64,000 nucleotides of DNA, taken from IMG/VR virus record IMGVR_UViG_3300045988_048443; one strand, given 5' to 3'. Source of the DNA: a virus. Within the stretch, counting starts at the first letter, position 1. Each line of letters opens with the position of its first letter. Position numbers and translations under genes: made by a program. A model generated the notes under the pieces. That model had not been told where the DNA came from and did not search any database. It saw nothing but the letters and a program-made list of their open reading frames with translations. Below are positions 3,724 through 62,298 of this stretch, in pieces.

Positions 3724-3733
3724 AACATTAAAC

Positions 3734-3792: not shown

Positions 3793-3823
3793 CTTTCATA
3801 TTAATAATTCAAATAATACTACT

Positions 3824-32700: not shown

Positions 32701-35700
32701 AGATAAGGGTCATTTCTTACCTGTAAATGATGCTCGTACTATAGATATTATTAGAAATAATCCTGCTGAAAGAAGAAGATATTTAAAGACTCTTCTTGAT
32801 GCTAGAGCATTGATTAGTAAATATGGTAATATTGCTTCAGTTAAAGTTAATAAAGCTGTAGATATTGATAATACTATAGCTTATGTAGAAAGACTTCAAA
32901 ATGCAATTAAACAACTTACAGATACTTCTATTATTGAACAAGCTGAAAAGTTGTTTGCTAATGATTATCTTGCAAAGCTTAGTGATAATCCTCAAATTCA
33001 AAATAATCTTATTAGTGTATTTGATGGTTTTCATTCTACTAGTTGGTTTGATGCTTGGGTTGGTGATTTACAGGATTCTGGTAATGCTTTTATACAAGTA
33101 CTTACTAAAAATGTAATGTCTGATATTAGAGCTAAAGAACTTCAAGCTAGAAGAACTGTAGATATTTTCAATAAAGAGATAGATAAAATATTTGCTGATG
33201 CAAAAGCTGCTGGTGTTAGTTTGTCATTTGATGATATTATTGATGCTGATGGTAGATTTATTCGTCCTTATAATGATAATTTTGAAAATGATTTAAATAA
33301 ACTTAGACAAGATGAGCGTAACGCTAAATCAGATATAATTAATAATCCTGAAGCTTACGTTGAAGCTAAGCATAAACTTGATAAGTTTTTATTAGACCAT
33401 GTAAATCGTAAGTTTGTTGATAGTTATTATAAAGAACTTTATGATGCTCAGGATGAACTTTATAGAAATCATAGACCTATACTTGAAGAGTATATTAAAA
33501 CAAAAGCTATGATTTCTGAAATTAATGACAGTAGGGTTGATGGTACACTTAGTCCTGAAAAGGAAACTGAATTAAAGAATCTTTGGTATCATCTTAATGA
33601 TATTCGTTCTGAATATGATTTAAATAATGGTGAACCTAAAGAAAGTTTTATTATGGGTTATCCTGGTATGAATCCTTCAACTGGTGAAGTTGTAGACAAA
33701 GAAAGATACCATAAAGCTAGAATAAATAATGCTGATGATTGTAAAGCTCTTGATAAATATCTCAAAACTGTCAATGATATTCGTAATAAGTATAATGATA
33801 GTAGAGTTCGTAAAGGTTTTGAAGACCAATTAAAGCGTATGCTTGATATTGTTGAAACTGCTGAAGCTAGAGACCCATCTGGTAGAATTAGTATTCCTGC
33901 TTCTCAACTTGAAATGAATAAAGAATATAAAGCTGCAAAAGCTTGGCTTGCTACTAATGCTAAATGGACAGTTGACCCAAGCATTCAAGAAGCTATACAT
34001 GAAGCATATAAAACTATGGGTTATAAGGGTGAAAATAATAGTAAGCTTAAAGTATATCTTAGAAAACTTAAAGCTACTAATGTAAATCCTTATGATGAAT
34101 TTGGTCGCTTAGATGGTACTATATTTACTGAAGAACAACAAGCTGCTATTCAAGAAGAAGCTCAGAAACGTTTTAATAATACAAAATATGGTATGGAAAA
34201 TGACCGTATTCTTATTAGTAATGGTCCTGAAGATGATGTTGTTTATCCTGCTGAAGTTTATAAAAGACTTGCAGCTAATGGTGTTCCAAATAAAAAGTAT
34301 CAGCAAATAGTGAAACAAGTTAATGAAATACTTGCTCCACATTATGACATTGCTACTAAACATGTTGCTACTTCAGAGCTTACTGAGGAAGAACTTGATA
34401 AACTTTATCAAGCTTATCAACCTTTGTTTGCAGGTATGAAGAAAACAGAAGATAGTACTAATGGTAAATCTATTGCTTATTTTGTTACTCGTTTTGTAGA
34501 TTTAGATAATTACAATAAAGAAGCATTCAATCTAGAAGAAGAACGAGCTAAAGCTAAAGGAGCTAAGTATTATAAAGCTTGGGAACGAGTTAATAAAATG
34601 GGTATTCCAAAACTTGATGATAAATATCAAGTTGTTACTGATGCTTCAGGTAATATAGTTTATGATGAAACTAAGGATAGAATACCTAATCGTTACATCT
34701 ATGGTACTCTTAAAGTAGATATGGATAAATATCTCAAGACAAAAGGTAAAAAGAAAGCTGAACAACTTCGCAAACAAATGAACGAAAGAACTGAAGCTTA
34801 TCGTACTATACATAATAATCTTGAGACTGTTAATACTCCTTATTATGAAGCTGAACTTAAAAAGCAAAGAGCAAAAGGTGATGCTGAGTTTAAGAAGTGG
34901 TATGATAGAAACCATGTATTTAATCCTTATACTCATAGAATGGAGCCTACTGTAATATGGAGAAAAACTCAAGTTATACCTGCTGTTGCAAATGGTGAAT
35001 GGAATGCTGGTTATACTCAAACTGAACTTGCTCCTAAACGTGCATATAAAAATGAAGATTATGCAGAAGGTGTAGGTTATATTGATAATTATAAGAAAAC
35101 TGATGATAAAACTTATGATTCAGAAGTTGTTCTTAATAAATATCAACGAGACCTTATGGAACATATTCAAAAGACTCTTAATGCTCTTGCTCAAACTGAA
35201 TCTGCAAAACGTTTTATAGGTAGAGGTTATCTTCCTTCTATGAATAAAGGTGCAGAACATGATGCAAAATGGTGGGGAAAACAATTCTTAGAGTTCCTTG
35301 GATATAGTGATAAACTTCAAAATGGTAGAGACCCTTTCTATCATATAGATTATGCTGATGATAAAGCTATTGATATGCCTATGTTAATGGAACAACTTAG
35401 AAATAAAGATTCTGTTAATATAGAGAATATTAAAAAGACTAAGCCACAGCGTATATCTTATGCTGATGATGAAGAATATAATGCTGCACTTACAGCTTAT
35501 AATAAACGTATGGAAGAAGCATTGAAGAAGAATAAAGAAATTCATCGTGCTTTACTTAATAGAGATTATCGTACTGTACTTTCAAATTTCATTACTCAAG
35601 CTGCTCATTTTAATGCTATACAAGATAATAAGTATATGCTTTACTATGGTAAAGAAATGCTTGATAGAATGGAAGTGTATCAAAAGAATGTAGGTTGGAG

Positions 35701-37531: not shown

Positions 37532-37533
37532 AT

Positions 37534-37572
37534 CCGCCCCGTAGAAGACATCAATAGCGATACTTCTACTAA
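37534..37572 (+). repeat. GC-motif copy with an attached hairpin (CCGCCCCGTAGAAG-N15-CTTCTACTAAT), 3 nt after the RNAP stop codon
   Basis: GTAGAAG (37541-37547) pairs with CTTCTAC (37563-37569) around a 15-nt loop. The geometry and trailing TAAT are the same as at 3741-3773. Confidence 0.8.
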
Positions 37573-37690: not shown

Positions 37691-37761
37691 TGCTCTATGG
37701 TGTAATGGTAGCACTACAGTTTTTGGTTCTGTCAGTGGTGGTTCGAGTCCGCCTGGAGTAA
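37691..37761 (+). tRNA. tRNA-Gln (anticodon UUG)
   Basis: Hand-folded cloverleaf. Acceptor TGCTCTA/TGGAGTA (two G-U pairs, U1-A72). D arm GTGT-AATGGTA-GCAC. Anticodon arm ACAG(T)-TTTTGGT-(T)CTGT with U33 and anticodon TTG at 37723-37725. T arm GGTGG-TTCGAGT-CCGCC. Discriminator A; no encoded CCA. Confidence 0.75.
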
Positions 37762-37849
37762 CAAATGCTATAAGTTCTAAACTACTTGCTAAAATAAATG
37801 GTTATAGGGTTTTTAAATGCTGTTTATGGTAATACTTATAAAGGCTTCT

Positions 37850-39839: not shown

Positions 39840-40388
39840 TTAATTATATGTTATTTGTAATACATTAGTATCAAAATTATAAACTATAGCATCATATTCA
39901 TTTATCCATAATTGTTTACTATTATTGAATCTATCTTTAGTAGTTTCACAATTACGTTTAAAAGCATTAGTACTACATCGTCTAATAACAAGAGGATTTA
40001 ATAGATAATATTTAGAATCAATATCAAAATTGTATTCATCAATACCTTCTATATCTTTCCAAGCAATCATAACACCAGCTTTAATTAATTCTTTAATTGC
40101 ATCTCTAACTCTATCTGGAGTTTTAGCATTAACTAAACCGGATTTGATTACTTCTTTTGTAACTATTCTAAAACTAGTTTGATTTTGACTAAGTTTCTTA
40201 TAAATATAATAAGCTACTTGAGTTGCAGTTTTAGAACAATGTACGGCTATTTCAGGAGCAAAATATGTTCCTGCTCCTTTAAACACATCATAAATAGTTT
40301 CTACATCTTGTAGTTTACCATTTATTTTAGTTCTAGCTTTACCTGTTGCTTCAGCCATAATTGTTTTATAATTTATAAAAGTAATCAT
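39840..40388 (-). CDS. Hypothetical protein; start uncertain
   Basis: The ORF track starts at a TTG (40436) that abuts a terminator hairpin. The first ATGs are at 40388 and 40358. No motif recognised. Confidence 0.5.
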   Translation of the reverse strand: MITFINYKTIMAEATGKARTKINGKLQDVETIYDVFKGAGTYFAPEIAVHCSKTATQVAYYIYKKLSQNQTSFRIVTKEVIKSGLVNAKTPDRVRDAIKELIKAGVMIAWKDIEGIDEYNFDIDSKYYLLNPLVIRRCSTNAFKRNCETTKDRFNNSKQLWINEYDAIVYNFDTNVLQITYN

Positions 40389-40434
40389 AGTATCATAAGT
40401 ATTATATACATCATCAACGCTTGTGCAAATATAC

Positions 40435-40473
40435 AAAAAAAGTAGGTTGCTATCACAACAACCTACATTTTTT
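40435..40473 (-). terminator. Rho-independent terminator, bidirectional in appearance
   Basis: GTAGGTTG (40442-40449) pairs with CAACCTAC (40459-40466). It is flanked by A7 on one side and T6 on the other. Confidence 0.7.
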
Positions 40474-40640
40474 AGCGTTAAATAATGTTTAATAAACTAA
40501 CACTCAATATGTTACAACGTACCTATATAATATATAATACAGCATATTAATGTTAGTTGCTATGATTATCACTACAAAGATAAGCATTATCATCAGTATT
40601 ACTACTAATAATAAGTACTTTAACAATAGTTTAACCACTA

Positions 40641-40716
40641 ACATCTTCTACGGGGCGGCTTTAGTTGCTTCTAGTATTCTAACACTAGTAGTTGCTCTAT
40701 CCTCCCCGTAAAGAAG
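40641..40716. repeat. GC-motif inverted pair in an intergenic region
   Basis: ACATCTTCTACGGGGCGG (40641-40658, reverse orientation) and CCTCCCCGTAAAGAAG (40701-40716). The 10-nt cores are complementary at 9 of 10 positions. An inner CTAGT/ACTAG hairpin lies between them. The pair starts 5 nt after the stop codon at 40721-40723. Confidence 0.8.
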
Positions 40717-40720
40717 CGTA

Positions 40721-41002
40721 TCAAAAGTTATATAGCATCATTCCTAATGACGTTACCCATTCTTTAGCATCTTCTTTATTATCAAATACTAATTCTTCAG
40801 GAACATTAGGAACACCTTTAGTTTCATCAATCATAATAGTGTAATTTACAACACTTTGATTATTATCAGCATAACTAGTAACTGCATTAATTGTACCAAC
40901 GAAGAATTTACCACTAATATGACTAAAAGCTAGTACCTCATCACCAACTTTGTAATGAGGTACTTTAAATTGATTTTCATTCTTGTTAAAACTAACTTGC
41001 AT
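40721..41002 (-). CDS. Hypothetical protein
   Basis: 93-aa ORF overlapping the upstream gene end by 11 nt. Confidence 0.55.
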   Translation of the reverse strand: MQVSFNKNENQFKVPHYKVGDEVLAFSHISGKFFVGTINAVTSYADNNQSVVNYTIMIDETKGVPNVPEELVFDNKEDAKEWVTSLGMMLYNF

Positions 41003-42044
41003 AAGCTACAACAGAATTAAGAGCTTTATTCATATTATTATTAGCACTACCCCAAACAAGACTATTCATACGTTTCTCACCTTCAAGATTAGCAACGTTA
41101 CAATAGAAACCAGTTACAGCATTATATGCACCCCAGGCAGTACCACAAATATCTTTCTGACCGATACCATCATTATAGTAATCCATCATATTATAAAGTT
41201 GATTAGCTTTACGAGAAGATATTTCAACTGCTTCAAGAAGTCTATAATCACGAGCAACAAGTCGAGCATAACCTTTATTAGGGTCATACTGATTAATTCG
41301 TTCAATCTCAGCAGGAGTAAGTTGTAATTCACAAAGATACTTATAAACTTCTTCATCACTCATCTTAATAGTAGTAAGATGACGATAAAGTTCTTGAGCA
41401 TCTAAAGCGTGAGAACAAGCAACTTTAAGTACTTGAGCACCAAGTTCAAGTTTCTCTTTTATAGACTTAGTATGTCTAAGTCTAATATGACAAGAAGCTT
41501 TATCCAAAGCACCATTAAGCATATTAGTACAAATAACACGAACAGGAGTAATCATAATGTCTACAGATGAACCACCATCATGTCCATTACTGAACACAAG
41601 ATAATTATCTATAACATCATCTTTACTTACAGAAGTTTGTACTGGCAGTTTAGCACTAACATATACTTTTTCTCCCATATTAAGACAAGCAGCTTTATCC
41701 CAAATTGCTTTACCTTCACCAATGGCATTATTAAAGAAATTAAAAGCGTCCATATTTTGAACAACTTCATACTTATCTTTAACTATACCTAAAGGATAAT
41801 TACAATCTGTACGATAGGTAGCATAAGCATTAGCACATTCACGATAAATATTACCATCATGTACAAAAGCATCTTCACCTAAATCGTTATTACTACCTAT
41901 TCTAAAAGGCATTTTACCTACAAGTTCACACTTTTGAACAGACCAATCAAGACCTGCTTTCTTCATTACATCTTGTGCAGTTACACAATCAGATACGTCT
42001 TTACCAATAGCCCAAGGAAGACCACCACGATTAAATTTACTCAT
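40992..42044 (-). CDS. DUF932-like phage/plasmid protein
   Basis: The N-terminus (LPWAIGKDVSDCVTAQDVMKKAGLDWSVQKCELV) resembles, from memory, the conserved start of DUF932/TIGR03299-type proteins. Not verified by HMM. Confidence 0.45.
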   Translation of the reverse strand: MSKFNRGGLPWAIGKDVSDCVTAQDVMKKAGLDWSVQKCELVGKMPFRIGSNNDLGEDAFVHDGNIYRECANAYATYRTDCNYPLGIVKDKYEVVQNMDAFNFFNNAIGEGKAIWDKAACLNMGEKVYVSAKLPVQTSVSKDDVIDNYLVFSNGHDGGSSVDIMITPVRVICTNMLNGALDKASCHIRLRHTKSIKEKLELGAQVLKVACSHALDAQELYRHLTTIKMSDEEVYKYLCELQLTPAEIERINQYDPNKGYARLVARDYRLLEAVEISSRKANQLYNMMDYYNDGIGQKDICGTAWGAYNAVTGFYCNVANLEGEKRMNSLVWGSANNNMNKALNSVVAYAS

Positions 42045-42076
42045 AACTCAGCGTTATTAAATTGTTAAACATTAAA

Positions 42077-42349
42077 TTAAATATTATCAGCAGGAGGAAG
42101 AGCTTCCTGATTATCTTTACTTTCTTCTTTATAATCAGGATTTAAATCACTAACGTTCCATCTATCACGTATTACATTTGAAACAATAAGTTCTACACTA
42201 ATTATATGTTTCTTTAGTTCTTCACCGTTATATTTAAGATATGAAGCACTACTTGTAGCATCAGATAAATCTTCTGCTAGAATATTAATATTAAGAAAAG
42301 TATTAGCTTTTACTTTAATATTTGTTTTAACGAAATATAGATTATACAT
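42077..42349 (-). CDS. Hypothetical protein
   Basis: 90-aa ORF with an ATG start. Confidence 0.5.
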   Translation of the reverse strand: MYNLYFVKTNIKVKANTFLNINILAEDLSDATSSASYLKYNGEELKKHIISVELIVSNVIRDRWNVSDLNPDYKEESKDNQEALPPADNI

Positions 42350-42365
42350 AATATTATTATTTATA

Positions 42366-42506
42366 TTAATAAGACGTTATATTTATAATGTCTAAAGATG
42401 AATCATACTCTACAGTAGTAGCATATACATCATCAACCATAACTTGACAGTCTCCATTAGTTTCTTGGAGACTGTCAAGTTTTTGTATTAGTTCTGAAAC
42501 TCTCAT
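42366..42506 (-). CDS. Possible small ORF (46 aa), below the ORF-track cutoff
   Basis: ATG at 42506, 1 nt after the upstream stop codon; TAA at 42366-42368. It contains a 13-bp perfect inverted repeat, so it may instead be regulatory DNA. Confidence 0.3.
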   Translation of the reverse strand: MRVSELIQKLDSLQETNGDCQVMVDDVYATTVEYDSSLDIINITSY

Positions 42507-42507
42507 G

Positions 42508-43272
42508 TTATTTAATAGTTAAATTATCATTTTCAACAATTTCAGCAATATTGGAAACACAACCATCATCTTTGATTTTAACTTTCATAAGTTTCTTATC
42601 AATACTAGGTTTAAATTTCCAACCATCACGATTAACAGCTCCAATATTAGTCATAAGCTGATAACCATCACCCTTGAGAAGGTCTGTAAGTTTAACTGGA
42701 ACAGTAACCTCAATATTAACATCATCAAGGTCTTCTATTTCAATTTCACTACATTCATAATTACCAGAATCTTTAGCAGTATTAACAATAGCATCAAGTA
42801 ATGCTTGTTCATCTACAGAAGAATTTTGGTTAAGAGTACCGGTATATATACCATTAGCAAAAGTTACTTTAAGCATATCATTAATAGCATCAAGTTTCTT
42901 ACTATTAACTTCAATAGTTTCGCTTTTACGAATAGTTACTTTACCAGTACCCCAATCAATCCATTTCTTACCACTCTTATCTTCTTTACCATACTTTTTA
43001 ATAGCAAAGAGAACAAGATTAGTAAGACCTTTAATTGTATTCTCTTTAGACTTCTTGAGTTTAGCAAGTCTATCAGTCTCAGACTTAATAGCAAGAATAT
43101 CAGCATTCAAATTATTAATAAAGTTAGTTATATTCTTAACTTTATTAGTCATTTCTTGACCGTTAATTTCAAGCTTTTCTTCCATTTCTGGAGTTATTTC
43201 TCCACATGCTTCTTCAATCTCATCATAAAGAGAATAAAGTTCTCTATCAATATCGAAAATACTTTTTGCCAT
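42508..43272 (-). CDS. Gp157-like coiled-coil protein (tentative)
   Basis: The N-terminal half (IFDIDRELYSLYDEIEE...EEKLEI...NKVKNITNFINNLNADILAIKSETDRLAKLKKSKENTIKGL) resembles the Siphovirus Gp157 family pattern as I recall it. Not verified. Confidence 0.35.
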   Translation of the reverse strand: MAKSIFDIDRELYSLYDEIEEACGEITPEMEEKLEINGQEMTNKVKNITNFINNLNADILAIKSETDRLAKLKKSKENTIKGLTNLVLFAIKKYGKEDKSGKKWIDWGTGKVTIRKSETIEVNSKKLDAINDMLKVTFANGIYTGTLNQNSSVDEQALLDAIVNTAKDSGNYECSEIEIEDLDDVNIEVTVPVKLTDLLKGDGYQLMTNIGAVNRDGWKFKPSIDKKLMKVKIKDDGCVSNIAEIVENDNLTIK

Positions 43273-43281
43273 ATTATTTAA

Positions 43282-43470
43282 TTATTTAATAGTTAAATCT
43301 ACATCTGCTCTATGAGTAATTTTACCATCTTCAACAGTAGAATAATTACGACCTACAGTAACACGAACTTCAACTTCAGGATTAGCTACTTCAAAATCAC
43401 TAATCAACTTGAGAATATCATTCTCTAAAGTCTTTGCATTCTTCTTAACTTCATTAATTGTCTTTTCCAT
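43282..43470 (-). CDS. Hypothetical protein
   Basis: 62-aa ORF in a tight gene chain. Confidence 0.45.
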   Translation of the reverse strand: MEKTINEVKKNAKTLENDILKLISDFEVANPEVEVRVTVGRNYSTVEDGKITHRADVDLTIK

Positions 43471-43473
43471 AAT

Positions 43474-43695
43474 TTATAAGTTTAAATGAGTTTCTACATT
43501 ATTTACTACACACAAAGGACATTCATCAGTCAGCATATACTTAACTTCATCAGAATTATAATTATTACTAAGTAACCACATTTCTGCAATTTGATTAATA
43601 TCTACATTAGAATCTTTATCAACATCTGCGTCAAAGTCAGTTATATCAGCAACTTCAATTTGTCCCATATTATAATTTAAAATACTTATCCACAT
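43474..43695 (-). CDS. Hypothetical acidic protein
   Basis: 73-aa ORF overlapping the thyX end by 10 nt. Confidence 0.45.
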   Translation of the reverse strand: MWISILNYNMGQIEVADITDFDADVDKDSNVDINQIAEMWLLSNNYNSDEVKYMLTDECPLCVVNNVETHLNL

Positions 43696-44651
43696 GTTAC
43701 AGCATTAATTAAATTATCAACTTTATCAGCAAGCTCTTTAGCCATAGGATGAGGAGTTCCACTAACACCATTAGAACGTAAATCAATATAATGATTCCAA
43801 TCATCATCAAAAGCAGTATGAACTACTTGAGTTTTAGTATTAAGAGGAAGAATTTCTCTAGCTTGTTGTGCAGCCCAACCAAATTCACGAGTTTTACGAT
43901 AAACTAAATCACAGATTTGAAGACCATAAAAGAACCAATCTACAGCATTCCAATTATCTGTATATTGTTCTTCAATTACATTATTATCAAAGATTTCATT
44001 ATCATTAAAGAAACCTTCACTGTAATCATGACCTTCATCAGTAGGGTCAACATCTGGAATCCAAGGAAGTTTAGCAACAGTTATTCCATTACCAAATTTA
44101 CCTTTATCATAAGCACAATATCTAGTACTTTCTTCACTAATACTATTAACTCTATGACGATTAAGTTCGCGACTGGCACCAATATCAGTTGTAAAAGAAA
44201 TAGTGCTTCTTGACATATAATAAGGAGAATTAGGAGTTGTATCTATAAATTCAAGTTCATCCATCCAATGATGTTCAATAAGAACTCTCATATTAGTAGT
44301 TACATAAATATAACCTTCATGTTCTCTAGTTCTACTATATTGATTATGAATAAATCTAGTAGCTTGAGCAGCAGCTCTAGGCATAAATAGAGGATATTTA
44401 AGATGAACTGTTCCGTGCTCACAGACTGAAAGATGACATTTTACAATATCTTTAGTGTTATACGATTGATTAGCAACATCATTACCTCTAAATAAAGTTC
44501 TAACTAAGAAACCATAATCAGTTTCTCCATTATTCTTTGAAGTCGATTGATAACAAACACGAGCACATCTAGCTATATGTTTCCAAATAGCATCAAGTGT
44601 ATAACCTTCTTGTTTCCAAAGTTCAACACTAGGATTTACAACTTTAATCAT
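43686..44651 (-). CDS. thyX: Flavin-dependent thymidylate synthase ThyX
   Basis: ThyX signature RHR-x7-S is present (SRELNRHRVNSISEESTRY). The length (321 aa) and the C-terminal R..H region are consistent with ThyX. Confidence 0.8.
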   Translation of the reverse strand: MIKVVNPSVELWKQEGYTLDAIWKHIARCARVCYQSTSKNNGETDYGFLVRTLFRGNDVANQSYNTKDIVKCHLSVCEHGTVHLKYPLFMPRAAAQATRFIHNQYSRTREHEGYIYVTTNMRVLIEHHWMDELEFIDTTPNSPYYMSRSTISFTTDIGASRELNRHRVNSISEESTRYCAYDKGKFGNGITVAKLPWIPDVDPTDEGHDYSEGFFNDNEIFDNNVIEEQYTDNWNAVDWFFYGLQICDLVYRKTREFGWAAQQAREILPLNTKTQVVHTAFDDDWNHYIDLRSNGVSGTPHPMAKELADKVDNLINAVTCG

Positions 44652-44656
44652 ATTAT

Positions 44657-45307
44657 TTACTTTTTACGTTTAACAAAATCTTTTCCAGCAGCATAATCAT
44701 TAGGAGACATAGCAACTACGTTTTCTTTATGTTCACTAGTAACAGGAATTTCTTTATCATCAGCAGATAAATTATATACATATCCATCTTTATCTTTACA
44801 AAGATTGTCAAAACCATAGGCAGCTATAATTTCATTAGTTACATCTTTCCTACTAGTTTCTTCAATAAGAACTAATTTATCTGTTTTAACAAGAGTAGAA
44901 ATATCTATGAAAGATGACTCTACACCCCCCGTAAAAGGTATTGTAGGTTCGTTTCCTTCATTACTAGCTTGCCAAGCTAATAACATATTACAATAATTAG
45001 CTAAATCTTGAATAGTATCAAACATACTTTCATCTTTAACATTAGGATTACTGTAACCTTGAAAATCATCTTCAATAAGATGAATCAAACGATTAGCTTT
45101 ATCATACATTCTAGCTAGACCATATCTATAGCCTAGTTTATCACAACCCTTATTGAAAGCATTACCATAATCAGCATTCTTTTTAGCCATAAGATTAAGC
45201 ATCTTATTTTGCTGGTCACGTAATGCAACAACTTCAGGAGTTACAAGGTGCTCTGGAACTACTCTATTAAGCACCGCTTTCCAATACTTTAAATCACTTT
45301 CTGTCAT
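44657..45307 (-). CDS. Hypothetical protein, DUF1599-like N-terminal helical domain (tentative)
   Basis: KNADYGNAFNKGCDKLGY...GLARMYDKANRL resembles helical proteins that often sit next to thymidylate synthase genes in phages. This is from memory and needs an HMM check. Confidence 0.3.
   Translation of the reverse strand: MTESDLKYWKAVLNRVVPEHLVTPEVVALRDQQNKMLNLMAKKNADYGNAFNKGCDKLGYRYGLARMYDKANRLIHLIEDDFQGYSNPNVKDESMFDTIQDLANYCNMLLAWQASNEGNEPTIPFTGGVESSFIDISTLVKTDKLVLIEETSRKDVTNEIIAAYGFDNLCKDKDGYVYNLSADDKEIPVTSEHKENVVAMSPNDYAAGKDFVKRKK
44925..44941 (+). repeat. GC-motif copy (C6 variant), antisense to its host CDS
   Basis: CCCCCCGTAAAAGGTAT. In the - strand gene it encodes F-T-G-G-V. Confidence 0.85.
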
Positions 45308-45315
45308 AATTGTTA

Positions 45316-45561
45316 TTATTTATATTTTACTTTACATTTTGTAGCTTCAACTTCTCTAATAGAATTATCGCTAATTACACGAACAATATAAATAGTTTTA
45401 CCTTTACTAAATAATCTTGGTTGTTCGTGTCTAACATCAATTACTTCTCCAACAAGTATTATTGGAATATCTATAGGAGTATCAAAAACTTCATCACCAT
45501 AATCATCATAATCATTAGAAGAAATAATTTTTGAATTTAATTCTTGCCATTCTACTATCAT
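45316..45561 (-). CDS. Hypothetical protein
   Basis: 81-aa ORF. Confidence 0.5.
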   Translation of the reverse strand: MIVEWQELNSKIISSNDYDDYGDEVFDTPIDIPIILVGEVIDVRHEQPRLFSKGKTIYIVRVISDNSIREVEATKCKVKYK

Positions 45562-45576
45562 AATTATTTTATTAAG

Positions 45577-47043
45577 TTAAATATCTGTCATTCCCACAGC
45601 TTCGATAGTTCTTCCGCTAGGTAAATGAATCAAATGATTTTCCATACATTCTTCAGTAGTTCTATTGAGAGGAAAAGCAAGTCTATTTTGTAGATTATAA
45701 TATCTAGCAAAATCTTTAATATCATCAAACCAAAGAATATGACAACCTATTATAAATTTCCATTCTTTATATCCTGATTTCTCAGGTTCATCTTGTCCGC
45801 ATTTAATAATGTCAACGAACTTATCTTCATAAGAAATACTTGAAACACAAAATGAACCAATTTTAAATTCATCACGTTTAAATCTAAATATAGTTTTGCC
45901 ACTAAGAATATAATTAGTATAAAGCTGATTAAATATATTAATAGCAGTTTCAAGAGGAACTATAGCACCACGACTAGTTTCAACCCAATTAGGTTTACCA
46001 GGTTTAAGTCTAAGTTGAGTATTAGAGAATACAACTTTATTAATAAAACTAGGAATAGGTTCAATGGTTCTTTTATAGTAATTAGCATAATATCTAGTAT
46101 ACTTTATTCTAGAAGTATAATTAGGTTTTCTCCAATCATCAACAGAACTATTTACCTTAGATAAAGCTTCTTTATAATTAGCTTCTGACTTATCAGCATA
46201 TCTCTTAGCAAGTTTATCAAAAGCTTCAGCTTTAGCTTTATCTTTAATTTTTACTTCTTCAATATAATCGTCAGACCAATTCTTATTAAGTTCTTTCCAA
46301 CTAATACCTTTATGAATACAAAACTTAGTATAGAACTTACATTTCTTAATTTTAAGAAGTTCTTCATCAGTAAATAGTTTATCTTCAAGAATGGTTTTAA
46401 TAGTAGGAAAATCAACTTTATAATCATTTATCCAATATGGCTTAGTATATAAAGGTTTACACTTAGATATAAACTTATATTTATCAGCAAAAACTTTAAT
46501 CTCAGTAAAATATCGTAGTCGATGTTCATTACCATAATTAGGAATTTGTTTACTTACACCATTAAGAACTTTATATTCATGATAATACGTTTCAAGATAC
46601 TTTTTAATAACATACGTCATGTGCATCTTAATAAGTACTTTCTTATTCTTTGGTTCAGTTATATCATAAAGAGGAATATCTTCATCAGTTTTATAAATAG
46701 TATAACCTACTGGAAGACCATATTTAATGCTCCAAGAATAATCAGCTCCTTCTTTAATTACAGCTATTTTACGTTCACGGTTAATAATAGCCATACAAGC
46801 ACCTTTAAGACCTCCACACCAGCCTTCTTTATCCCAATTCTCTTTAATGTAATCAGGAGTAAGTTTTGTCCCTAATGATTTTCCTCTATGAAAGAAATAA
46901 CCATAACCAAAACAATAGCAATGATAATTACTATCATACCAACCAGGTTCATCACGATGAATACCTTCATGAATACCGGCATATTTAGTAAACGAATGTT
47001 TAACTTTTCTATTAGGTTCAGCACCTACTTTACTTTTAACCAT
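45577..47043 (-). CDS. Hypothetical protein (488 aa)
   Basis: Long ORF, K/Y/W-rich. No motif recognised. Confidence 0.6.
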   Translation of the reverse strand: MVKSKVGAEPNRKVKHSFTKYAGIHEGIHRDEPGWYDSNYHCYCFGYGYFFHRGKSLGTKLTPDYIKENWDKEGWCGGLKGACMAIINRERKIAVIKEGADYSWSIKYGLPVGYTIYKTDEDIPLYDITEPKNKKVLIKMHMTYVIKKYLETYYHEYKVLNGVSKQIPNYGNEHRLRYFTEIKVFADKYKFISKCKPLYTKPYWINDYKVDFPTIKTILEDKLFTDEELLKIKKCKFYTKFCIHKGISWKELNKNWSDDYIEEVKIKDKAKAEAFDKLAKRYADKSEANYKEALSKVNSSVDDWRKPNYTSRIKYTRYYANYYKRTIEPIPSFINKVVFSNTQLRLKPGKPNWVETSRGAIVPLETAINIFNQLYTNYILSGKTIFRFKRDEFKIGSFCVSSISYEDKFVDIIKCGQDEPEKSGYKEWKFIIGCHILWFDDIKDFARYYNLQNRLAFPLNRTTEECMENHLIHLPSGRTIEAVGMTDI

Positions 47044-47080
47044 AATTTTACTTTTAATGTTTTACAATAAATATATTATT

Positions 47081-47197
47081 TTAAATTGCATGATTGCGAA
47101 TAGCATAATAAAGAAGCATTAAACTTCCTATTATTATATAAGGTGCAACAAGCACTAAACAACCAAACCAACCACTATTATAATCTTCATTGGTCAT
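47081..47197 (-). CDS. Possible small membrane protein (38 aa), below the ORF-track cutoff
   Basis: MTNEDYNSGWFGCLVLVAPYIIIGSLMLLYYAIRNHAI, with one clear hydrophobic helix. ATG at 47197; TAA at 47081-47083. Confidence 0.35.
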   Translation of the reverse strand: MTNEDYNSGWFGCLVLVAPYIIIGSLMLLYYAIRNHAI

Positions 47198-47280
47198 ACT
47201 ATTAAGTTATTTAATATTTTAATTTTGTTTCTAACAAATTGAATTTAGTTATATGAATAACTAATAAGCAGGCACAATAA

Positions 47281-47335
47281 AGCCGCTCACGTATTAAGTA
47301 AAGTGGAAATCTACCACATTTTCTACGGGGCGGCT
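47281..47335. repeat. GC-motif copy with a decayed inverted partner, forming a hairpin element
   Basis: The reverse complement of 47314-47335 reads AGCCGCCCCGTAGAAAATGTGG. The partner AGCCGCTCACGTA is at 47281-47293. AGCCGC (47281-47286) pairs with GCGGCT (47330-47335). The element starts 14 nt after the stop codon at 47350-47352. Confidence 0.75.
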
Positions 47336-47349
47336 CTAGCAATTTAATG

Positions 47350-47706
47350 TTATATGTTCAACTGATACACTTCACCATCATGCTGATTATCAACAAGTTT
47401 AACTTCAACATTAGTATCTTCAACTATAGAATTAAGAATAGAATCTTCAATAACTTCTTTAGGAATAGAAAACTTTAATCTACTATAATTATCTTTATTA
47501 GTTATACTAAATCTACCATCAGTATTATTCATACTAATAGCTAGAAAATAATCATTTCGTTTAATATTTTCGTTCCATCGTTGTAAGAACTTATAGAACA
47601 TTCTAAACTTTATTTCTCGACTATATAGTCTTTTAAACTTTGGAGAATACCAAGTTTTATGTTTGTCTAGTTTTTCTGTTACGTTATCATAAGCGTTTAA
47701 ATTCAT
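47350..47706 (-). CDS. Hypothetical protein
   Basis: 118-aa ORF. Confidence 0.55.
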   Translation of the reverse strand: MNLNAYDNVTEKLDKHKTWYSPKFKRLYSREIKFRMFYKFLQRWNENIKRNDYFLAISMNNTDGRFSITNKDNYSRLKFSIPKEVIEDSILNSIVEDTNVEVKLVDNQHDGEVYQLNI

Positions 47707-49874: not shown

Positions 49875-51018
49875 ATCTAATAGTTTCTTTAATAAAAGTA
49901 TCTATTTCATCATTATTGAATTTATCATGTAAATCAGCAAAATCTTTACACTCATAATCTTCAAGTCCAAATTCTCCACGAGTAATAAAAAGATAAGGAA
50001 TACCATACGTTTCTAAAAGATAATCAGCACCATCACGTCCGGTTCTATCAAAATCTAGAAGACTAACAATCATACCTTCATTATTAAGTCTTTTTCTAAG
50101 CCAAGTATATTCATTAGCTTTAAGTCTATAATTTTCACTAGGAAGATTAACAACTCCAATATTAAGAGTTTTTCCATCCGCCCCGTAGAAGATATGTTTG
50201 CTTAGATGACTACCTAAACTTAATCTATCTTTACTAGACTTAGTTATAATAATATAATCATAATCTTCTCTTTCTAGATTAGGAAGACCTTCAAGTACAT
50301 TACAATTAGTTACAAACTTTAATTCCTTAGTTCTATCACGTAATGGAAAATATAGTTTAATAAGATATACTCCAGATTTATTACGACCAAGCATATAAGC
50401 ATAACAAGGGTCATTCTTAGCATCTTTATATTTAGGAGTAGGATTAGTTACTCTATCAATATAATACTGCTCAACTGGAATAACAAAATGAGTATTAAGA
50501 TAATTCAAATCTACATTTAATTTAGCCCATATAGCTTTATCTTGACGATTCCAACTACGAGGAACAATTTCAATAATAGCTTTTTTCTTACGAGCTTTAA
50601 CGAGAGCATTCTTTATAGATTCGTCTACATTATAATCATTAACACGATTATCGATTTGATATGAAAACGTTCTATAAATATGACTTAGTACAAAATAAAA
50701 ATCTTGTTTATTATTTGTACTAATTGGTCTTTCATATACAATACTTAGTACGTAAGCTACTACACCATATACATCATCAAAGAAACCAGCACCACCAAAA
50801 TCACGAACTTTAAGCCTACCTTTGGCATTGTATGCAATACCCATACTACCATCAGTATCATCATCACGAAATACAGAAGTAATAAGATGATTATGTTCAA
50901 CACAATCTCTAACTACTTCTAATGGTATATCTAAGTATTTACTTACAATTTCTTCTTGACTTACTCTAGATTCTATAAAAGCTTTTGTAAGTTTACTTGT
51001 GTTAGCATTACGTTTCAT
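49792..51018 (-). CDS. DnaG-like DNA primase (Toprim domain)
   Basis: The C-terminal part has Toprim-like IIITKSSKDRLSL and LLDFDRTGRDGADYL (DxD). The N-terminal region aligns by eye to the primase zinc-ribbon region, but the cysteines are absent. Confidence 0.55.
   Translation of the reverse strand: MKRNANTSKLTKAFIESRVSQEEIVSKYLDIPLEVVRDCVEHNHLITSVFRDDDTDGSMGIAYNAKGRLKVRDFGGAGFFDDVYGVVAYVLSIVYERPISTNNKQDFYFVLSHIYRTFSYQIDNRVNDYNVDESIKNALVKARKKKAIIEIVPRSWNRQDKAIWAKLNVDLNYLNTHFVIPVEQYYIDRVTNPTPKYKDAKNDPCYAYMLGRNKSGVYLIKLYFPLRDRTKELKFVTNCNVLEGLPNLEREDYDYIIITKSSKDRLSLGSHLSKHIFYGADGKTLNIGVVNLPSENYRLKANEYTWLRKRLNNEGMIVSLLDFDRTGRDGADYLLETYGIPYLFITRGEFGLEDYECKDFADLHDKFNNDEIDTFIKETIRYVEIRYRKDKSDTDAYFKRLSDCDLPY
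50178..50196 (+). repeat. GC-motif copy, antisense to its host CDS
   Basis: CCGCCCCGTAGAAGATATG. In the primase gene it encodes F-Y-G-A-D-G. Confidence 0.9.
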
Positions 51019-54090: not shown

Positions 54091-55506
54091 TTAATCGACA
54101 ATACAATAAGCATTATTATTATCAACTTTAACATTTCTATCAAAATCGTTAATTATTGTATGATTGATTGGAACAGCCCTATCTTCTAGTTTTTTCTCCT
54201 CTAACGTGCCTTTATAAAATAAGGTGTATAATAATACCTCATTACTGAAATGAACCTTAGAAAGCCTATAGAAATAGCTCTCAATAGTATCACATAAGGG
54301 AGAAGTGATTATAACCAAATCAATATCAACATCTAAAGACTTGTCAGGCGAAGCACCACAAGAAATTACATTTATCTTATGAGTGTTCATAAGTTTTTGT
54401 GCAAGTTTCTTTTGAGCAATAACACCTAGAAGTTTAGGTTGACCTTTCTTTGGACCACTCTTTACAAGAATAGGATTTCCATAATCATCTACAGCAGGAA
54501 CATTATCTACTTTATCATGGCAATTAGCACAAATTCTTTTACCAGATTTATCATTAAGATAATCAGTAACAAGATTAGCAAATTCACCATACTTGTTTAT
54601 AATGAGTATATTCTTGTCTGAATTGTTATTGACTATATCTAAGATATTACTAAGTTTATCTTTAGAACTAGCAAGTTTAGTACTACGTTCTCTAACAATA
54701 TTATAAATACTATCAGCACGTTCTTTAATAGCAGAAGGACTATAAAGTCTATCTATATCTCTATTAAATTCTGAAGACATATCTAGATGATTATCCCAAC
54801 CATTAGTACGAGCAATAGCATCACATATCATCATACTAGAACAATTAGTAACACTATTTCCTAATCGAGCATACTTAATATTATCAAAGTTACCAAATAT
54901 AGCTAGAGCAGTAGAAATTTCCCTATTATAATAGTTCATTTCTTTATCTAGTTCACTATCAGGTACTATAGTTAATCCTACCAAACACTCTTTTACGGGG
55001 CGGTTAGACCTAACTTCATCAATAACATTTTGACTAAAGTTACCAATACTAGGAGCAACAGTATAGAAATCATCCATAGTTTTACTATCTAGTAGCTTAT
55101 TGAGAATTACTAGATTAAACTTAGACTTTTCTATCATAGCTATATGTACAAAATGAAATATACTAGGATTATAAATTATAGTCAGTAGAGGACTATAATC
55201 ATTAATATGTTCAGCAGCATATTCAGTAGTTAAAATCCTAAGACTTCCATTATGTATTACAGTACGAAAAGAATTATTCCATACTTCATTGTTCAAAGTA
55301 GTTAAATAACTTTCAATACTACTTCTATCTGCAAAATCTTTCACAATAATAACAACACTAGTCGTAGGAGACTTATTGTAAAGTTGTGGAAGAATATAAA
55401 GCAGAGGTCTTAGAGCATCAAAAGGAGCAGGTATTACAAAAGTACCTATTCCTTTATTTAATCTCCAAACATCAACAGCATTTAAATAAACTTGTTCTTC
55501 TGTCAT
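54091..55506 (-). CDS. Helicase-like protein with degenerate motifs (tentative)
   Basis: 471 aa. The C-terminal LDVDIDLVIITSPLCDTIESYFYRLSKV resembles SF2 motifs V-VI. I could find no canonical Walker A (GxxxxGK[ST]). Confidence 0.3.
   Translation of the reverse strand: MTEEQVYLNAVDVWRLNKGIGTFVIPAPFDALRPLLYILPQLYNKSPTTSVVIIVKDFADRSSIESYLTTLNNEVWNNSFRTVIHNGSLRILTTEYAAEHINDYSPLLTIIYNPSIFHFVHIAMIEKSKFNLVILNKLLDSKTMDDFYTVAPSIGNFSQNVIDEVRSNRPVKECLVGLTIVPDSELDKEMNYYNREISTALAIFGNFDNIKYARLGNSVTNCSSMMICDAIARTNGWDNHLDMSSEFNRDIDRLYSPSAIKERADSIYNIVRERSTKLASSKDKLSNILDIVNNNSDKNILIINKYGEFANLVTDYLNDKSGKRICANCHDKVDNVPAVDDYGNPILVKSGPKKGQPKLLGVIAQKKLAQKLMNTHKINVISCGASPDKSLDVDIDLVIITSPLCDTIESYFYRLSKVHFSNEVLLYTLFYKGTLEEKKLEDRAVPINHTIINDFDRNVKVDNNNAYCIVD
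54986..55005 (-). repeat. GC-motif copy (reverse orientation), co-oriented with its host CDS
   Basis: The reverse complement reads AACCGCCCCGTAAAAGAGTG. It encodes N-R-P-V-K-E. Confidence 0.85.
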
Positions 55507-57776: not shown

Positions 57777-58335
57777 TTATTAATTTAATTATTTCCATTC
57801 CATTATAATTATTATCTTTATTAGCAGTAAGCCATTTAACTAGACGATTACGAAATTCATCGTATTTAGTATCATCTATAAACTTAATAAAAGGAGAGTA
57901 ATTTGTACTATAAACATAAGGAGCTATATAATATAGTTTATCTTTACCTTTAGTAATATCAAAACCAAAATTAGTAGCAGCATTACCAAGAAGCATTATC
58001 TTCTTGATATTATTAATTCTAATATCAGCAAATGTATGAAGCATACATCTATTAGCTATATATTGATTTACAGGACAACGTTCGTCAAGCTTACAACGGA
58101 TAAGAGGAACAATATAGGGGTCTAGTTGTTCTAGACCCCCCGTAAGAGATGTGATAGTTTCCTTTACTATTTCCACATACTTACTAAACGTCATTCCTCT
58201 ATTCTTATAAGCATTGTAATCAACATTAGGTACAACAATAATCATACCTGACATTGGATTACCAATACCATCAAAACATTTGCACTTAGTATTAAACATA
58301 CCTAAAGCACAATTATCACATACTTTAGGAATCAT
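57766..58335 (-). CDS. Uracil-DNA glycosylase superfamily-like protein (divergent family 4-like)
   Basis: The N-terminus (CDNCAL...GIGNPMSGMIIVVPNVD) parallels the family-4 UDG layout C..C.L...G.G....lmivGEaPG, but the catalytic residues are diverged. The gene is adjacent to the polymerase gene. Confidence 0.4.
   Translation of the reverse strand: MIPKVCDNCALGMFNTKCKCFDGIGNPMSGMIIVVPNVDYNAYKNRGMTFSKYVEIVKETITSLTGGLEQLDPYIVPLIRCKLDERCPVNQYIANRCMLHTFADIRINNIKKIMLLGNAATNFGFDITKGKDKLYYIAPYVYSTNYSPFIKFIDDTKYDEFRNRLVKWLTANKDNNYNGMEIIKLINDS
58136..58153 (+). repeat. GC-motif copy (C6 variant), antisense to its host CDS
   Basis: CCCCCCGTAAGAGATGTG. It encodes S-L-T-G-G-L. Its C-run also pairs with GGGGTCTAG at 58117-58125. 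Confidence 0.85.
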
Positions 58336-62239: not shown

Positions 62240-62290
62240 AGTTCTGCTTGGTTTCGCACCATAAGCCGTATTACTACACTTAGCAGAACT
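62240..62290. other. Intergenic hairpin (9-bp stem, 33-nt loop)
   Basis: AGTTCTGCT (62240-62248) pairs with AGCAGAACT (62282-62290). No T-run follows on either strand. It lies next to the GC-motif copy at 62303. Confidence 0.5.
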
Positions 62291-62298
62291 TAATTACT

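Follow-up and report, generated by a model that had tools for sequence, protein, structure and literature searches.

The crAss-like phage genome represented by our window (64,000 nucleotides, IMG/VR record IMGVR_UViG_3300045988_048443) carries a 20–24-nt strand-asymmetric motif that is a cis-acting signal of the phage genome and that the prototypical crAssphage also has. The real entity is this unit motif, and the inverted pairs found 3' of several genes are two units at close range. The source phage belongs to the Intestiviridae and is approximately 85% identical to cr8_1. With the consensus CAYAYCTTY-TACGGGG-NGGCT, the unit motif is present in 17 copies in the window versus 0.2 expected; a window scan allowing up to 2 mismatches returned 16 matches versus 0.20 expected, with a maximum of 2 in 100 shuffles. 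Each unit proceeds from a pyrimidine block free of G, about 12 nt long, through YAYG into a G-run, with conservation that ends approximately 24 nt out.

Versions of the motif particular to their lineage occur in cr8_1, cr110_1, Carjivirus communis (31 copies) and cultured crAss002 (29 copies), while crAss001 carries a shorter 9-mer, of the size of Chi, at a density equal to that of the unit motif. In bacterial genomes, the motif is neither enriched nor present as a host repeat, and the literature searched contained no paper in which its sequence is printed.

Single and intragenic copies

Ten of the 17 window copies (59%) lie within open reading frames (ORFs). The single copies are as follows:

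11235-11258, plus strand: intragenic copy, sense (LLRGGS), kept in 13 orthologous sequences
15346-15369, minus strand: intragenic copy, antisense (IRPVK), from motif match and ortholog comparison
20147-20170, plus strand: intragenic copy, sense (SSTGGL), in the 2394-aa ORF, from motif match and ortholog comparison
22443-22466, minus strand: intragenic copy, antisense (SHPVED), in the 2394-aa ORF, from motif match
26855-26878, plus strand: intragenic copy, sense (LYGAD), in the 4613-aa ORF, from motif match
30338-30361, minus strand: intragenic copy, antisense (SRPVED), in the 4613-aa ORF, from motif match
37529-37552, minus strand: single intergenic copy (core 37532-37543) abutting the stop of the 4613-aa ORF, with a cr8_1 ortholog at 3399
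44919-44942, minus strand: intragenic copy, sense (FTGGV), 3 mismatches, with the full consensus at the same site in the cr8_1 clade
50173-50196, minus strand: copy in the primase gene, sense (FYGAD), with a cr110_1 ortholog that uses a different frame (LRGV) and compensating indels on either side
54985-55008, plus strand: copy in the SNF2-type helicase gene, antisense (NRPVKE), with a positional ortholog in cr110_1
58130-58153, minus strand: copy in the uracil-DNA glycosylase gene, sense (LTGGL), from motif match and ortholog comparison
62298-62321, minus strand: copy encoding a C terminus (LRGG*) and overlapping the stop codon of a 114-aa ORF

Single copies outnumber pairs by about 4:1, share the 24-nt consensus with paired copies and are equally conserved at orthologous positions, with no partner motif within 120 nt. 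Since conserved singles carrying the full consensus without a partner are more numerous than pairs, the unit motif is the functional entity, and the preliminary description's proposal of a dimeric site with intragenic half-sites falls away.

The intragenic copies use all three sense frames and one antisense frame. Two of the sites, one in the primase gene and one in a small ORF preceding the terminase gene, persist in two subfamilies but with the frame changed and indels that compensate for it; an orthologous site read in different frames between subfamilies means that selection acts on the nucleic acid. Several intragenic copies are located in indel-rich loops, and the cr110_1 DNA-polymerase copy sits in an inserted stretch of 21 aa that cr8_1 lacks. 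The G-run of the window copy in the uracil-DNA glycosylase gene pairs additionally with a downstream CTAGACCCC. A look-alike at 60205 (3 mismatches), which encodes SF1-helicase motif III (..QIPPV), was rejected as a copy.

Inverted pairs just 3' of genes

All four intergenic loci directly follow genes, with stops adjoining the loci at 3732, 37532, 40649 and 47281, and three of the four are inverted pairs, both as initially described. These three, together with a neighbouring terminator, are:

3729-3797, unstranded: outward-facing inverted pair, copies 3732-3743 (−) and 3783-3794 (+), 39-nt palindromic spacer
40640-40719, unstranded: inward-facing inverted pair, copies 40649-40660 (+) and 40699-40710 (−), 1-5 nt past the stop at 40721-40723
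47281-47338, unstranded: pair with an imperfect partner, copy 47324-47335 (+), 14 nt past the stop at 47350-47352
40435-40473, minus strand: canonical hairpin and T-run terminator, about 170 nt downstream of the 40649 pair

The paired loci hold up as real: they are conserved palindromes, extended but imperfect, just 3' of genes. At the 40649 pair, for which the earlier coordinates (inverted copies within 40641-40716) were all verified, TACGGGGCGGCT at 40649-40660 (+) is matched by TACGGGGAGGAT at 40699-40710 (−). Their 10-nt cores, TACGGGGCGG and TACGGGGAGG, match at 9 of 10 positions and are separated by 42 nt (38 nt between the 12-mers), inside which lies a CTAGT...ACTAG hairpin; the adjacent stop codon is the TGA at 40723-40721. 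The minus strand folds at −33.4 kcal/mol (z −4.4), and the cr8_1 ortholog of this pair (46-119), with a different 54-nt spacer, folds at −48 kcal/mol (z −8). The position of the pair just past the stop and upstream of a canonical terminator was borne out, with the hairpin and T-run themselves at 40442-40466 on the minus strand; this terminator is context, outside the motif system. The terminator also shares positions with a match to the FopS sRNA family that stays below threshold.

At the 47281 pair, whose distance from its stop was likewise verified, the partner AGCCGCTCACGTA at 47281-47293 is separated from the intact copy TACGGGGCGGCT at 47324-47335 by 30 nt, outside the 39–44 nt previously given for the spacers. 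Its folding scores are z −3.5 and −4.4, and on the minus strand UUUAUU follows the hairpin. The partner had been called decayed, but AGCCGCTCACG is unchanged in 14 of 14 related contigs. The pair at 3732 begins 8 nt past the stop at 3721-3723 and 30 nt ahead of the next start codon, and folds at −35.7 kcal/mol (z −7.5).

Folding of both strands, proposed earlier as a check, showed that the three window pairs form long hairpins on either strand (z −3.5 to −7.5 versus shuffles). The G-rich ends point inward at the 40649 pair but outward at the other two, and the spacers, 30–66 nt in the window and up to approximately 120 nt in Carjivirus, differ in sequence by locus. Pairing is conserved in related genomes, with orthologous or analogous pairs in cr8_1, cr110_1, Carjivirus and crAss002.

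Spacing, strand alternation and one-strand hairpin potential

Copies are evenly spaced in each of the five genomes (P ≤ 0.002), with coefficients of variation of the gap of 0.36 in the window, 0.51 in cr8_1, 0.47 in cr110_1, 0.43 in Carjivirus and 0.58 in crAss002, versus about 0.93 for random placement. Mean gaps are 3.3–4.2 kb (about 1 copy per 3.5 kb) and the longest, in crAss002, is 10.3 kb; such spacing is sensible for a process travelling along DNA and is on the scale of Okazaki fragments. Both strands are used equally (7:10 in the window, 14:13 in cr8_1, 17:19 in cr110_1, 13:18 in Carjivirus and 16:13 in crAss002), the strand switches between adjacent copies in 88 of 119 steps (74%) across four independent genomes, and close pairs (<1 kb) are inverted in 37 of 39 independent cases. 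In every genome, copies on both strands occur at either side of the gene-orientation switch. Copy orientation is independent of transcription direction, which argues against an mRNA signal.

A short hairpin is possible on the motif strand only, with stems averaging 4.6–6.1 bp versus <1 bp on the complement, and is a property of the consensus itself. Among 345 instances, the 5' arm changes only between C and T, facing an invariant G, and the Carjivirus variants GGGGGGT and GGGGAGT both retain the hairpin through a register shift; no instance-level compensatory covariation was found in the stem (P 0.3–0.9). The cr110_1 hairpin is G·U-dependent, with a UACG loop and −7 to −12 kcal/mol; other lineages have UAUG or CAC as the loop. 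In the lineage of the window, the consensus GGGGCGG gives a C×C stem mismatch and a weak fold (−1.5 to −6 kcal/mol).

Possible function and closest known systems

Our best guess from these sequence patterns, held at a probability of roughly 30%, is that the motif could be a strand-specific single-strand initiation (priming) signal. We infer that it would be read as single-stranded DNA, the pyrimidine block and G-run forming a short G·T-containing hairpin, and that it would mark where a phage enzyme begins the RNA synthesis that primes DNA synthesis. The candidate enzyme would be a DnaG-family primase, which all these phages encode, or the giant RNA polymerase of the phage; in vitro, the crAss virion RNA polymerase accepts no template other than single-stranded or denatured DNA. 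One site per approximately 3.5 kb, with strands alternating, would be kept wherever coding sequence permits.

Strand-specific hairpin signals that act only as single-stranded DNA are known from ssiA and ssiB of RSF1010 (used by the RepB' primase), the phage G4 complementary-strand origin and mitochondrial OriL. At such signals a primase or RNA polymerase is made to begin synthesis, and RSF1010 has two, inverted on opposite strands at its origin. Those replicons have one to three signals near the origin, whereas the crAss motif numbers 25–36 genome-wide, also within genes, and its reader and activity are putative. The RSF1010 layout recurs in Carjivirus, where AT-rich palindromes of 130–140 nt, bounded by inverted copies on opposite strands, lie just upstream of both repL genes; one of them coincides with the origin predicted by Schmidtke et al. 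A single bidirectional origin, however, predicts lagging-strand signals that switch strand at origin and terminus, which is not seen. Trinucleotides suffice for known DnaG–DnaB replisomes. Alternation and the inverted-only rule could alternatively arise passively if a RecT-encoding phage is selected to avoid direct repeats, in which case the orientation argument is removed. The hairpin promoters of N4 also resemble the motif in being short one-strand DNA hairpins (5–7-bp stem, small loop), and the virion-packaged RNA polymerase of N4 that reads them requires a single-stranded template. crAss-like phages are described as following an N4-like strategy. The three N4 promoters, unlike the crAss motif, lie upstream of early genes and all point in one direction, and no common upstream motif was found for early transcripts of phi14:2.

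The uptake sequences DUS (Neisseria) and USS (Pasteurellaceae) are short, massively over-represented on both strands, and found both between genes and within them, whatever the frame; inverted pairs that can also act as hairpins are common just downstream of genes, and DUS reportedly form lineage-specific 'dialects' co-evolving with their reader. The crAss motif shares the excess on both strands, genic and intergenic placement, inverted pairs after genes and lineage-specific versions. DUS differ in belonging to bacterial chromosomes, where they serve transformation, occur roughly once per kb and are not known for even spacing or strand alternation, whereas the crAss motif is phage-borne, longer and evenly spaced, with no bacterial repeat.

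Among other readings, a conceivable though doubtful one is an array of double-stranded binding or loading sites for a sequence-specific phage protein with a nucleoid-organizing, silencing, partition-like, shielding or polar-roadblock role. An asymmetric site of 14–24 bp is typical of protein binding, lineage-specific versions suggest a co-evolving reader, a factor spreading or looping from evenly spaced sites would cover the genome uniformly, the claimed phage-plasmid lifestyle of Carjivirus would need silencing or partition, and the putative stem lacks covariation. The stoperators of cluster A mycobacteriophages and the C1 operators of P1 are comparable in comprising 20–30 or more dispersed asymmetric sites of 13–17 bp, some as inverted doublets, in subcluster-specific variants that match the repressor. 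These, however, are intergenic or in promoters, and stoperator orientation follows transcription, while the crAss motif is 59% intragenic and transcription-independent. A search for a candidate protein found none; symmetric readers such as ParB use palindromes; the alternating orientation would need a separate explanation; and a pyrimidine-only arm opposite a G-run, with a one-strand hairpin in four motif versions, would be coincidence. A Chi-like 'self' mark that, correctly oriented, attenuates a helicase–nuclease (host RecBCD/AddAB or a phage SF1 helicase with a PD-(D/E)XK nuclease), protecting phage DNA and promoting recombination, is unlikely. Chi too is G-rich, strand-specific, indifferent to genes, present about once per 4–5 kb and read on single-stranded DNA; interleaved, evenly spaced orientations mean that a break anywhere has correctly oriented sites to either side; these phages encode a RecD-like SF1 helicase, a PD-(D/E)XK nuclease, RecT and Gam; and the crAss001 9-mer fits in size and density. 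Yet known Chi sites are 5–8 nt, host-owned and skewed to one strand per replichore, whereas the motif is 14–24 nt, unskewed, different among phages whose hosts are related and without enrichment in bacterial genomes, and the apparent association of similarity-block ends with sites is confounded, as megablast seeds on the motif. Less likely still are programmed single-strand nicks, made in virion or replicating DNA. The nick-site motifs of T5-like and phiKMV-like phages are also long, asymmetric, dispersed and indifferent to genes, a 2025 paper is said to link a motif to nicks, and the gene sets of the crAss-like phages include HNH endonucleases and a ligase; but known nick motifs are one-stranded, few and unevenly placed, and inverted pairs 30–70 bp apart would nick both strands close together.

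We also consider it improbable that the motif is an RNA-level hairpin that stabilizes, processes or terminates transcripts, with inverted pairs as 3'-end hairpins or terminators. The strong folds just past stop codons, the G·U-dependent UACG-loop hairpin of cr110_1 and the U-rich runs behind the outward-facing pairs (CUUUCAUAUU at 3795 and the UUUAUU after 47281) would suit it. About half of the singles, however, are antisense to genes, where the hairpin is impossible in mRNA; alternation and even spacing on both strands would be senseless for mRNA; the loop is not conserved; a canonical terminator already follows the 40649 pair; and an Rfam search gave no family match. The preliminary description also proposed a palindromic REP- or MITE-like element, and a selfish REP/BIME, MITE or RPE-like repeat spreading by insertion, also in-frame into genes, would account for the hairpin-forming intergenic inverted pairs after genes and for copies in indel-rich loops such as the cr110_1 insertion. 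We regard this as very unlikely: conservation stops about 24 nt out, spacers are unrelated and variable in length, the pairs have two geometries, 10 of 17 copies are in ORFs, the sites are occupied at stable positions in all relatives examined, with no empty sites or target-site duplications visible, the copies have no mobile-element anatomy, and none of the relatives has an annotated RAYT or transposase gene. That copies are evenly spaced, at a density that stays constant from one subfamily to another, points to selection, not spread.

If the motif is a priming signal, the whole set would constitute genome-wide single-strand initiation signals on both strands of these phages. Close inverted units would then give one start per strand at a single locus, and intergenic units, embedded in longer palindromes, may as RNA double as 3'-end hairpins.

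The repeated unit and its inverted pairs

The window comes from a crAss-like phage of about 30% G+C; its nearest record, the uncultured phage cr8_1 (Crassvirales; Intestiviridae; Obtuvirinae), is ~85% identical across the half that can be aligned. Genes run on the + strand to ~37.5 kb (including 2394-aa and 4613-aa open reading frames (ORFs)) and on the - strand beyond. At up to two mismatches, TACGGGGCGGCT matches the window 16 times, against 0.20 expected from shuffled sequence. When 213 distinct instances are aligned, taken from IMG/VR contigs as well as from the window and cr8_1, they yield an asymmetric 24-nt unit with a G-free 5' block, CAYAYCTTY-TACGGGG-NGGCTnKA. Of its 17 copies in the window, 10 lie within ORFs, read in all three sense frames (LLRGGS, SSTGGL, L/FYGAD, F/LTGG) or in antisense (xRPVE/K), 6 occupy the 4.9% that is non-coding and 1 overlaps a stop codon. 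A look-alike at 60205 (three mismatches) was rejected as a copy, being SF1-helicase motif III.

Some intergenic copies form inverted pairs just 3' of genes. The preliminary description took these for a palindromic REP- or MITE-like element, or a dimeric binding site of which the intragenic copies would be half-sites. Its coordinates are all correct on re-examination; the features concerned are listed here with refined positions.

3732/3783: inverted pair, G-rich ends outward
40649(+)/40699(-): inverted pair, G-rich ends inward, with an inner CTAGT/ACTAG hairpin and 38 nt between 12-mers; stop codon TGA at 40723-40721
40442-40466 (-): canonical terminator
47281/47324: inverted pair (47281-47335), G-rich ends outward, one arm intact and the other imperfect; stop at 47350, 14 nt away

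The inverted layout is real, but it comes in two geometries, and the proposed 39-44-nt spacer rule breaks at the third pair (30 nt; the spacers between arms in the window are 30, 38 and 39 nt). The imperfect partner at 47281-47335, AGCCGCTCACG, had been called decayed; it is invariant in 14 related contigs, which makes it a stable imperfect arm. The pairs fold far better than shuffled sequence (z -3.5 to -7.5). In intergenic DNA they are embedded in longer imperfect palindromes, which are kept as structures even where the spacer sequence has been replaced (cr8_1, cr110_1 and Carjivirus communis; z -4.6 to -11); spacers between arms are 34-66 nt in relatives and ~100-124 nt in Carjivirus, with unrelated sequences. 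At 3732 and 47281 the terminal GGCGGCU of the pair runs into a weak U tract (UUUCAUAUU or UUUAUU), whereas the 40649 pair has no U tract and is followed by the canonical terminator.

The remaining copies have no partner within 120 nt and no U run, match the consensus as well as paired copies do and are retained at orthologous positions in relatives. The 47281/47324 locus is occupied in all 14 related contigs, as are all orthologous intragenic sites, and no flanking direct repeats that could be target-site duplications occur at the three pairs. The observation of inverted pairs is therefore confirmed, and its interpretation is not supported: intragenic copies, unrelated spacers and the fact that no empty sites or target duplications were seen speak against a REP- or MITE-like element, and variable spacing, two geometries and consensus-grade single copies against a dimeric site with intragenic half-sites. 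The unit, not the pair, is the entity, and what underlies the pairs first described is a larger and more interesting phenomenon.

Several further features lie close to copies of the unit.

37691-37762 (+): tRNA-Gln (anticodon UUG), at the meeting point of the two convergent gene blocks; the single copy at 37532 is 150 nt away
40432-40503 (-): sub-threshold Rfam match to the Bacteroidetes FopS sRNA family
58112-58144 (-): perfect 9-bp hairpin in the uracil-DNA glycosylase gene, GGGGTCTAG-aacaa-CTAGACCCC
62240-62292 (-): intergenic block TTAAGTTCTGCTAAGTGTAGTAATACGGCTTATGGTGCGAAACCAAGCAGAAC, just downstream of the copy at 62298-62321

The FopS match covers the full model length at 28.9 bits (gathering score 56; E 0.007-0.017) and shares its position with the canonical terminator that separates the motif pair from the next gene. 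Either the phage carries a FopS-like sRNA here, or the match reflects only a likeness between terminators. The 9-bp hairpin includes the G-run of a copy and is kept in relatives; cr8_1 shows a single compensating variant, GGGGGCTAG...CTAGTCCCC. The intergenic block is near-invariant in 12 related contigs despite diverging flanking genes, and contains an 8-bp stem (GTTCTGCT/AGCAGAAC) with a fold z-score of only -1.8. Nothing in Rfam matches the block, which may function as a regulatory site or encode a small RNA. The deposited linear records of cr8_1 and cr110_1 each start within ~100 nt of an inverted motif pair (46-119 and 103-273, respectively), which could reflect chance, an assembly breakpoint at the repeat or physical genome ends near the pair.

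Lineage versions, spacing and strand alternation

Each Intestiviridae lineage examined carries its own version of the motif, and the matches listed in IMG/VR scans include many crAss-like contigs of about 90-98 kb with ~30% G+C. None of the literature searched prints any version of it, and the main crAss genomics papers that were checked do not mention it.

Motif versions and evenness of spacing. Gap CV, coefficient of variation of gaps after merging copies <500 bp apart; random placement gives 0.91-0.95.
Genome; motif; sites; gap CV; P
Window; CAYAYCTTY-TACGGGG-NGGCTnKA; 17 copies; 0.36; 0.0004
cr8_1; CATACCTTTTACGGGGSGGCT; 27 copies; 0.51; 0.0002
cr110_1 (Crudevirinae); aTCCTCTACGGGGGGTC; 36 sites containing TACGGGG; 0.47; <0.0002
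Carjivirus communis (prototypical crAssphage); tCCATCCTC[T/C]ACGGGG[G/A]GT; 31 sites; 0.43; <0.0002
crAss002 (cultured; Churivirinae); cTCCTTTA[C/T]GGGGGAA; 29 sites; 0.58; 0.002

In all five genomes the copies are far more evenly spaced than under random placement, with mean gaps of 3.3-4.2 kb. The two strands are used almost equally (7:10, 14:13, 17:19, 13:18 and 16:13), with no block-wise skew, and from one copy to the next the strand usually changes: across four independent genomes it does so in 22/26, 21/35, 21/30 and 24/28 steps, a total of 88/119 that by our own arithmetic lies ~5 standard deviations above one half. Loci with two copies <1 kb apart are inverted in 37 of 39 independent cases, and the pairs of the preliminary description are the short-range case of this alternation rule. 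The strand of the motif does not switch where gene orientation changes, and a test for lagging-strand bias under simple bidirectional replication gave only a weak excess in cr110_1 and Carjivirus (~59%) and none in cr8_1.

Conservation acts on nucleotides rather than on peptides. A site in the primase gene is common to the window and cr110_1, which belongs to another subfamily and whose DNA polymerase is only 44% identical; it is read in the LRGV frame in cr110_1 and as FYGAD in the window, flanked by +1 and +2 indels, and the site in a small ORF before the terminase gene changes frame in the same way between subfamilies. Such shifts between orthologous copies indicate selection on the DNA or RNA sequence; together with the four different reading frames, they led us to reject a protein-coded repeat. 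The motif is maintained against the needs of the proteins that it interrupts. Only 3 of ~17 mappable cr110_1 sites share a position with cr8_1, and many sites lie in indel-rich loops, from which we conclude that positions turn over while density is held constant. The copy in the cr110_1 DNA polymerase B gene (31619-33925 of sequence L125) lies within a 21-aa insertion absent from cr8_1, and several other copies are also at indels; sites may arise with small insertions or may be tolerated only in variable loops.

Beyond the Intestiviridae, crAss001 (Steigviridae; MH675552) contains no TACGGGG. It carries CTTCTGGAG 27 times in 100 kb, where ~0.3 are expected; both strands and several reading frames are used, and gaps average 3.75 kb (CV 0.74, P 0.08). 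This sequence includes CTG, the start triplet of DnaG, follows a stretch poor in G and may be a functional analogue. The first 50 kb of cr55_1 (Suoliviridae) hold ttACTCTGGa/t 11 times on both strands (~2.6 expected for the 7-mer; the statistics are weak), perhaps as yet another version of such a signal, and a brief look for an analogous motif in phi14:2 found nothing striking.

Known repeat systems and rival explanations

The layout of the motif most resembles that of DNA uptake sequences (DUS): these too use both strands and any frame, form inverted pairs downstream of genes and come in lineage dialects. DUS/USS are, however, abundant in the genome of a competent bacterium and are read by its own uptake machinery, whereas this motif is carried by a phage; a 15-mer scan of 185,579 bacterial genomes returned only scattered single matches in unrelated bacteria, which also dismisses a host repeat. 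The motif lacks defining features of REP/BIME elements, MITEs, Chi, stoperators and dimeric operators. REP/BIME units are imperfect palindromes of 20-40 nt, are extragenic only and are associated with a RAYT (HUH Y1) transposase gene, whereas the motif is mostly intragenic; the annotations of cr8_1, cr110_1, Carjivirus and crAss002 list no RAYT gene. In MITEs, terminal inverted repeats surround an interior of uniform length and family-specific sequence, with target-site duplication and presence/absence polymorphism; the spacers here vary in both respects and both arm geometries occur. Dimeric sites have fixed half-site spacing and orientation, and their isolated half-sites are weaker or degenerate, unlike the single copies here. 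Stoperator and operator arrays are intergenic, are oriented with transcription and have a cognate repressor; the motif is mostly intragenic, sense and antisense copies are about equally frequent and no cognate repressor was identified. To our knowledge, none of these systems, DUS and ssi signals included, has been described as combining even spacing with strand alternation.

These patterns best fit a DNA signal that is directional or strand-specific and that both strands require at regular intervals. The main rival to a priming role, discussed below, is an array of duplex sites at which a phage protein would bind or load, which is possible although doubtful; replication proteins and small proteins scanned against Pfam and PHROGs gave nothing specific as a reader, and a RepL gene was sought beside the 40649 pair and rejected (ORF 39840-40436 has no significant similarity to either Carjivirus RepL, Pfam or PHROGs). 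A Chi-like mark controlling nucleases is improbable: Chi sites are 5-8 nt long, are skewed to one strand per replichore and are read by RecBCD or AddAB, whereas here 14-24 nt are conserved with the strands near equal. Similarly low odds attach to an RNA hairpin, mainly at the pairs. Intrinsic terminators consist of a G+C-rich hairpin with a U run directly after it, and two pairs are followed by a weak U tract; half of all copies are antisense, and strand alternation would be meaningless for mRNA. Across the whole window only tRNA-Gln reached the gathering threshold in Rfam 15, where the motif has no match and nothing better than E=0.4 overlaps the inverted pair. Programmed nicks are a still slimmer prospect. 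A selfish element is very unlikely, since conservation stops at ~24 nt, the spacers are unrelated, neither duplications nor empty sites were seen, and selection appears to have shaped density and spacing. We also rejected a promoter, since orientation is unrelated to genes and some of the intergenic copies are directed back at the 3' end of the gene upstream of them; the promoters that Drobysheva et al. describe for crAss phages are sigma70-like and differ in sequence. Megablast matches end nearer the sites than expected by chance (P 0.0005), but a link to mosaic junctions was discarded because the conserved motif itself seeds short matches.

A putative single-strand initiation signal

We tentatively favour, with a probability of about 0.3 and on sequence grounds, a putative single-strand initiation (priming) signal, whose mechanism would most resemble that of RSF1010 ssiA/ssiB and the G4 complementary-strand origin. 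In ssi/G4-type signals a hairpin forms on one strand, and primer synthesis starts there on SSB-coated single-stranded DNA. In the motif, the pyrimidine arm can pair with the G-run across a YAYG (or YAC) loop: across 345 instances, arm positions are only C or T opposite invariant G. The stem of 4-6 bp relies on G·T pairs; its mean length is 5.6-6.1 bp for Crudevirinae and 4.6-4.9 bp for the lineage of the window, against <1 bp on the complement strand; cr110_1 copies fold at -7 to -12 kcal/mol, and both Carjivirus variants keep the hairpin via a register shift. Arms re-paired between instances give the same stem length, so that there is no instance-level covariation, and the window consensus has a C×C mismatch within the stem; the one-strand hairpin is therefore a property of the consensus, suggestive rather than proven.

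Besides this strand-confined hairpin potential, a priming role is suggested by the G-free block of ~12 nt, which has the length of a primer template (a post hoc observation), by spacing on the Okazaki-fragment scale, by a conserved DnaG-family primase, by a crAss virion RNA polymerase that is active only on single-stranded templates in vitro, and by the AT-rich palindromes with inverted copies that lie upstream of both Carjivirus repL genes. Against it, the motif does not change strand with gene orientation, ordinary DnaG replisomes need no long sites, and selection against direct repeats in a RecT-encoding phage could alone give the alternation.

The Carjivirus palindromes (130-140 nt; sequences L370 and L371) have inverted motif copies at their borders and occupy the long intergenic stretches that immediately precede the two repL genes.

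L370 28060-28200: AT-rich palindrome, -71 kcal/mol, z -11
L371 46730-46890 (Carjivirus communis 95730-95890): AT-rich palindrome, -63 kcal/mol, z -9

The origin region predicted by Schmidtke et al. coincides with one of them.

If the motif is a priming signal, Intestiviridae, and perhaps, in view of the shorter analogous motifs in crAss001 and cr55_1, all Crassvirales, would write evenly spaced start sites on alternating strands into their own genomes. The reader would be a phage enzyme, a primase or an RNA polymerase acting on single-stranded DNA templates, that is stringently specific for sequence and structure. Such a genome-wide code, with DNA synthesis on both strands primed only at these sites, is conceivable but speculative. 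If true, it would represent a replication mode with genome-encoded start sites for Okazaki or strand-displacement synthesis, a mode of which we know no description in any phage.

No viruses of the human gut are more abundant than crAss-like phages, and we know of almost no work on their cis-acting DNA signals. An evenly spaced, strand-alternating 20-nt signal present 25-36 times per genome, in the prototypical crAssphage as well as in the cultured crAss002, offers lineage-specific versions usable for contig classification, an engineering target whose sites can be synonymously recoded and a direct experimental handle on the replication, organisation or protection of crAss-like phage DNA.
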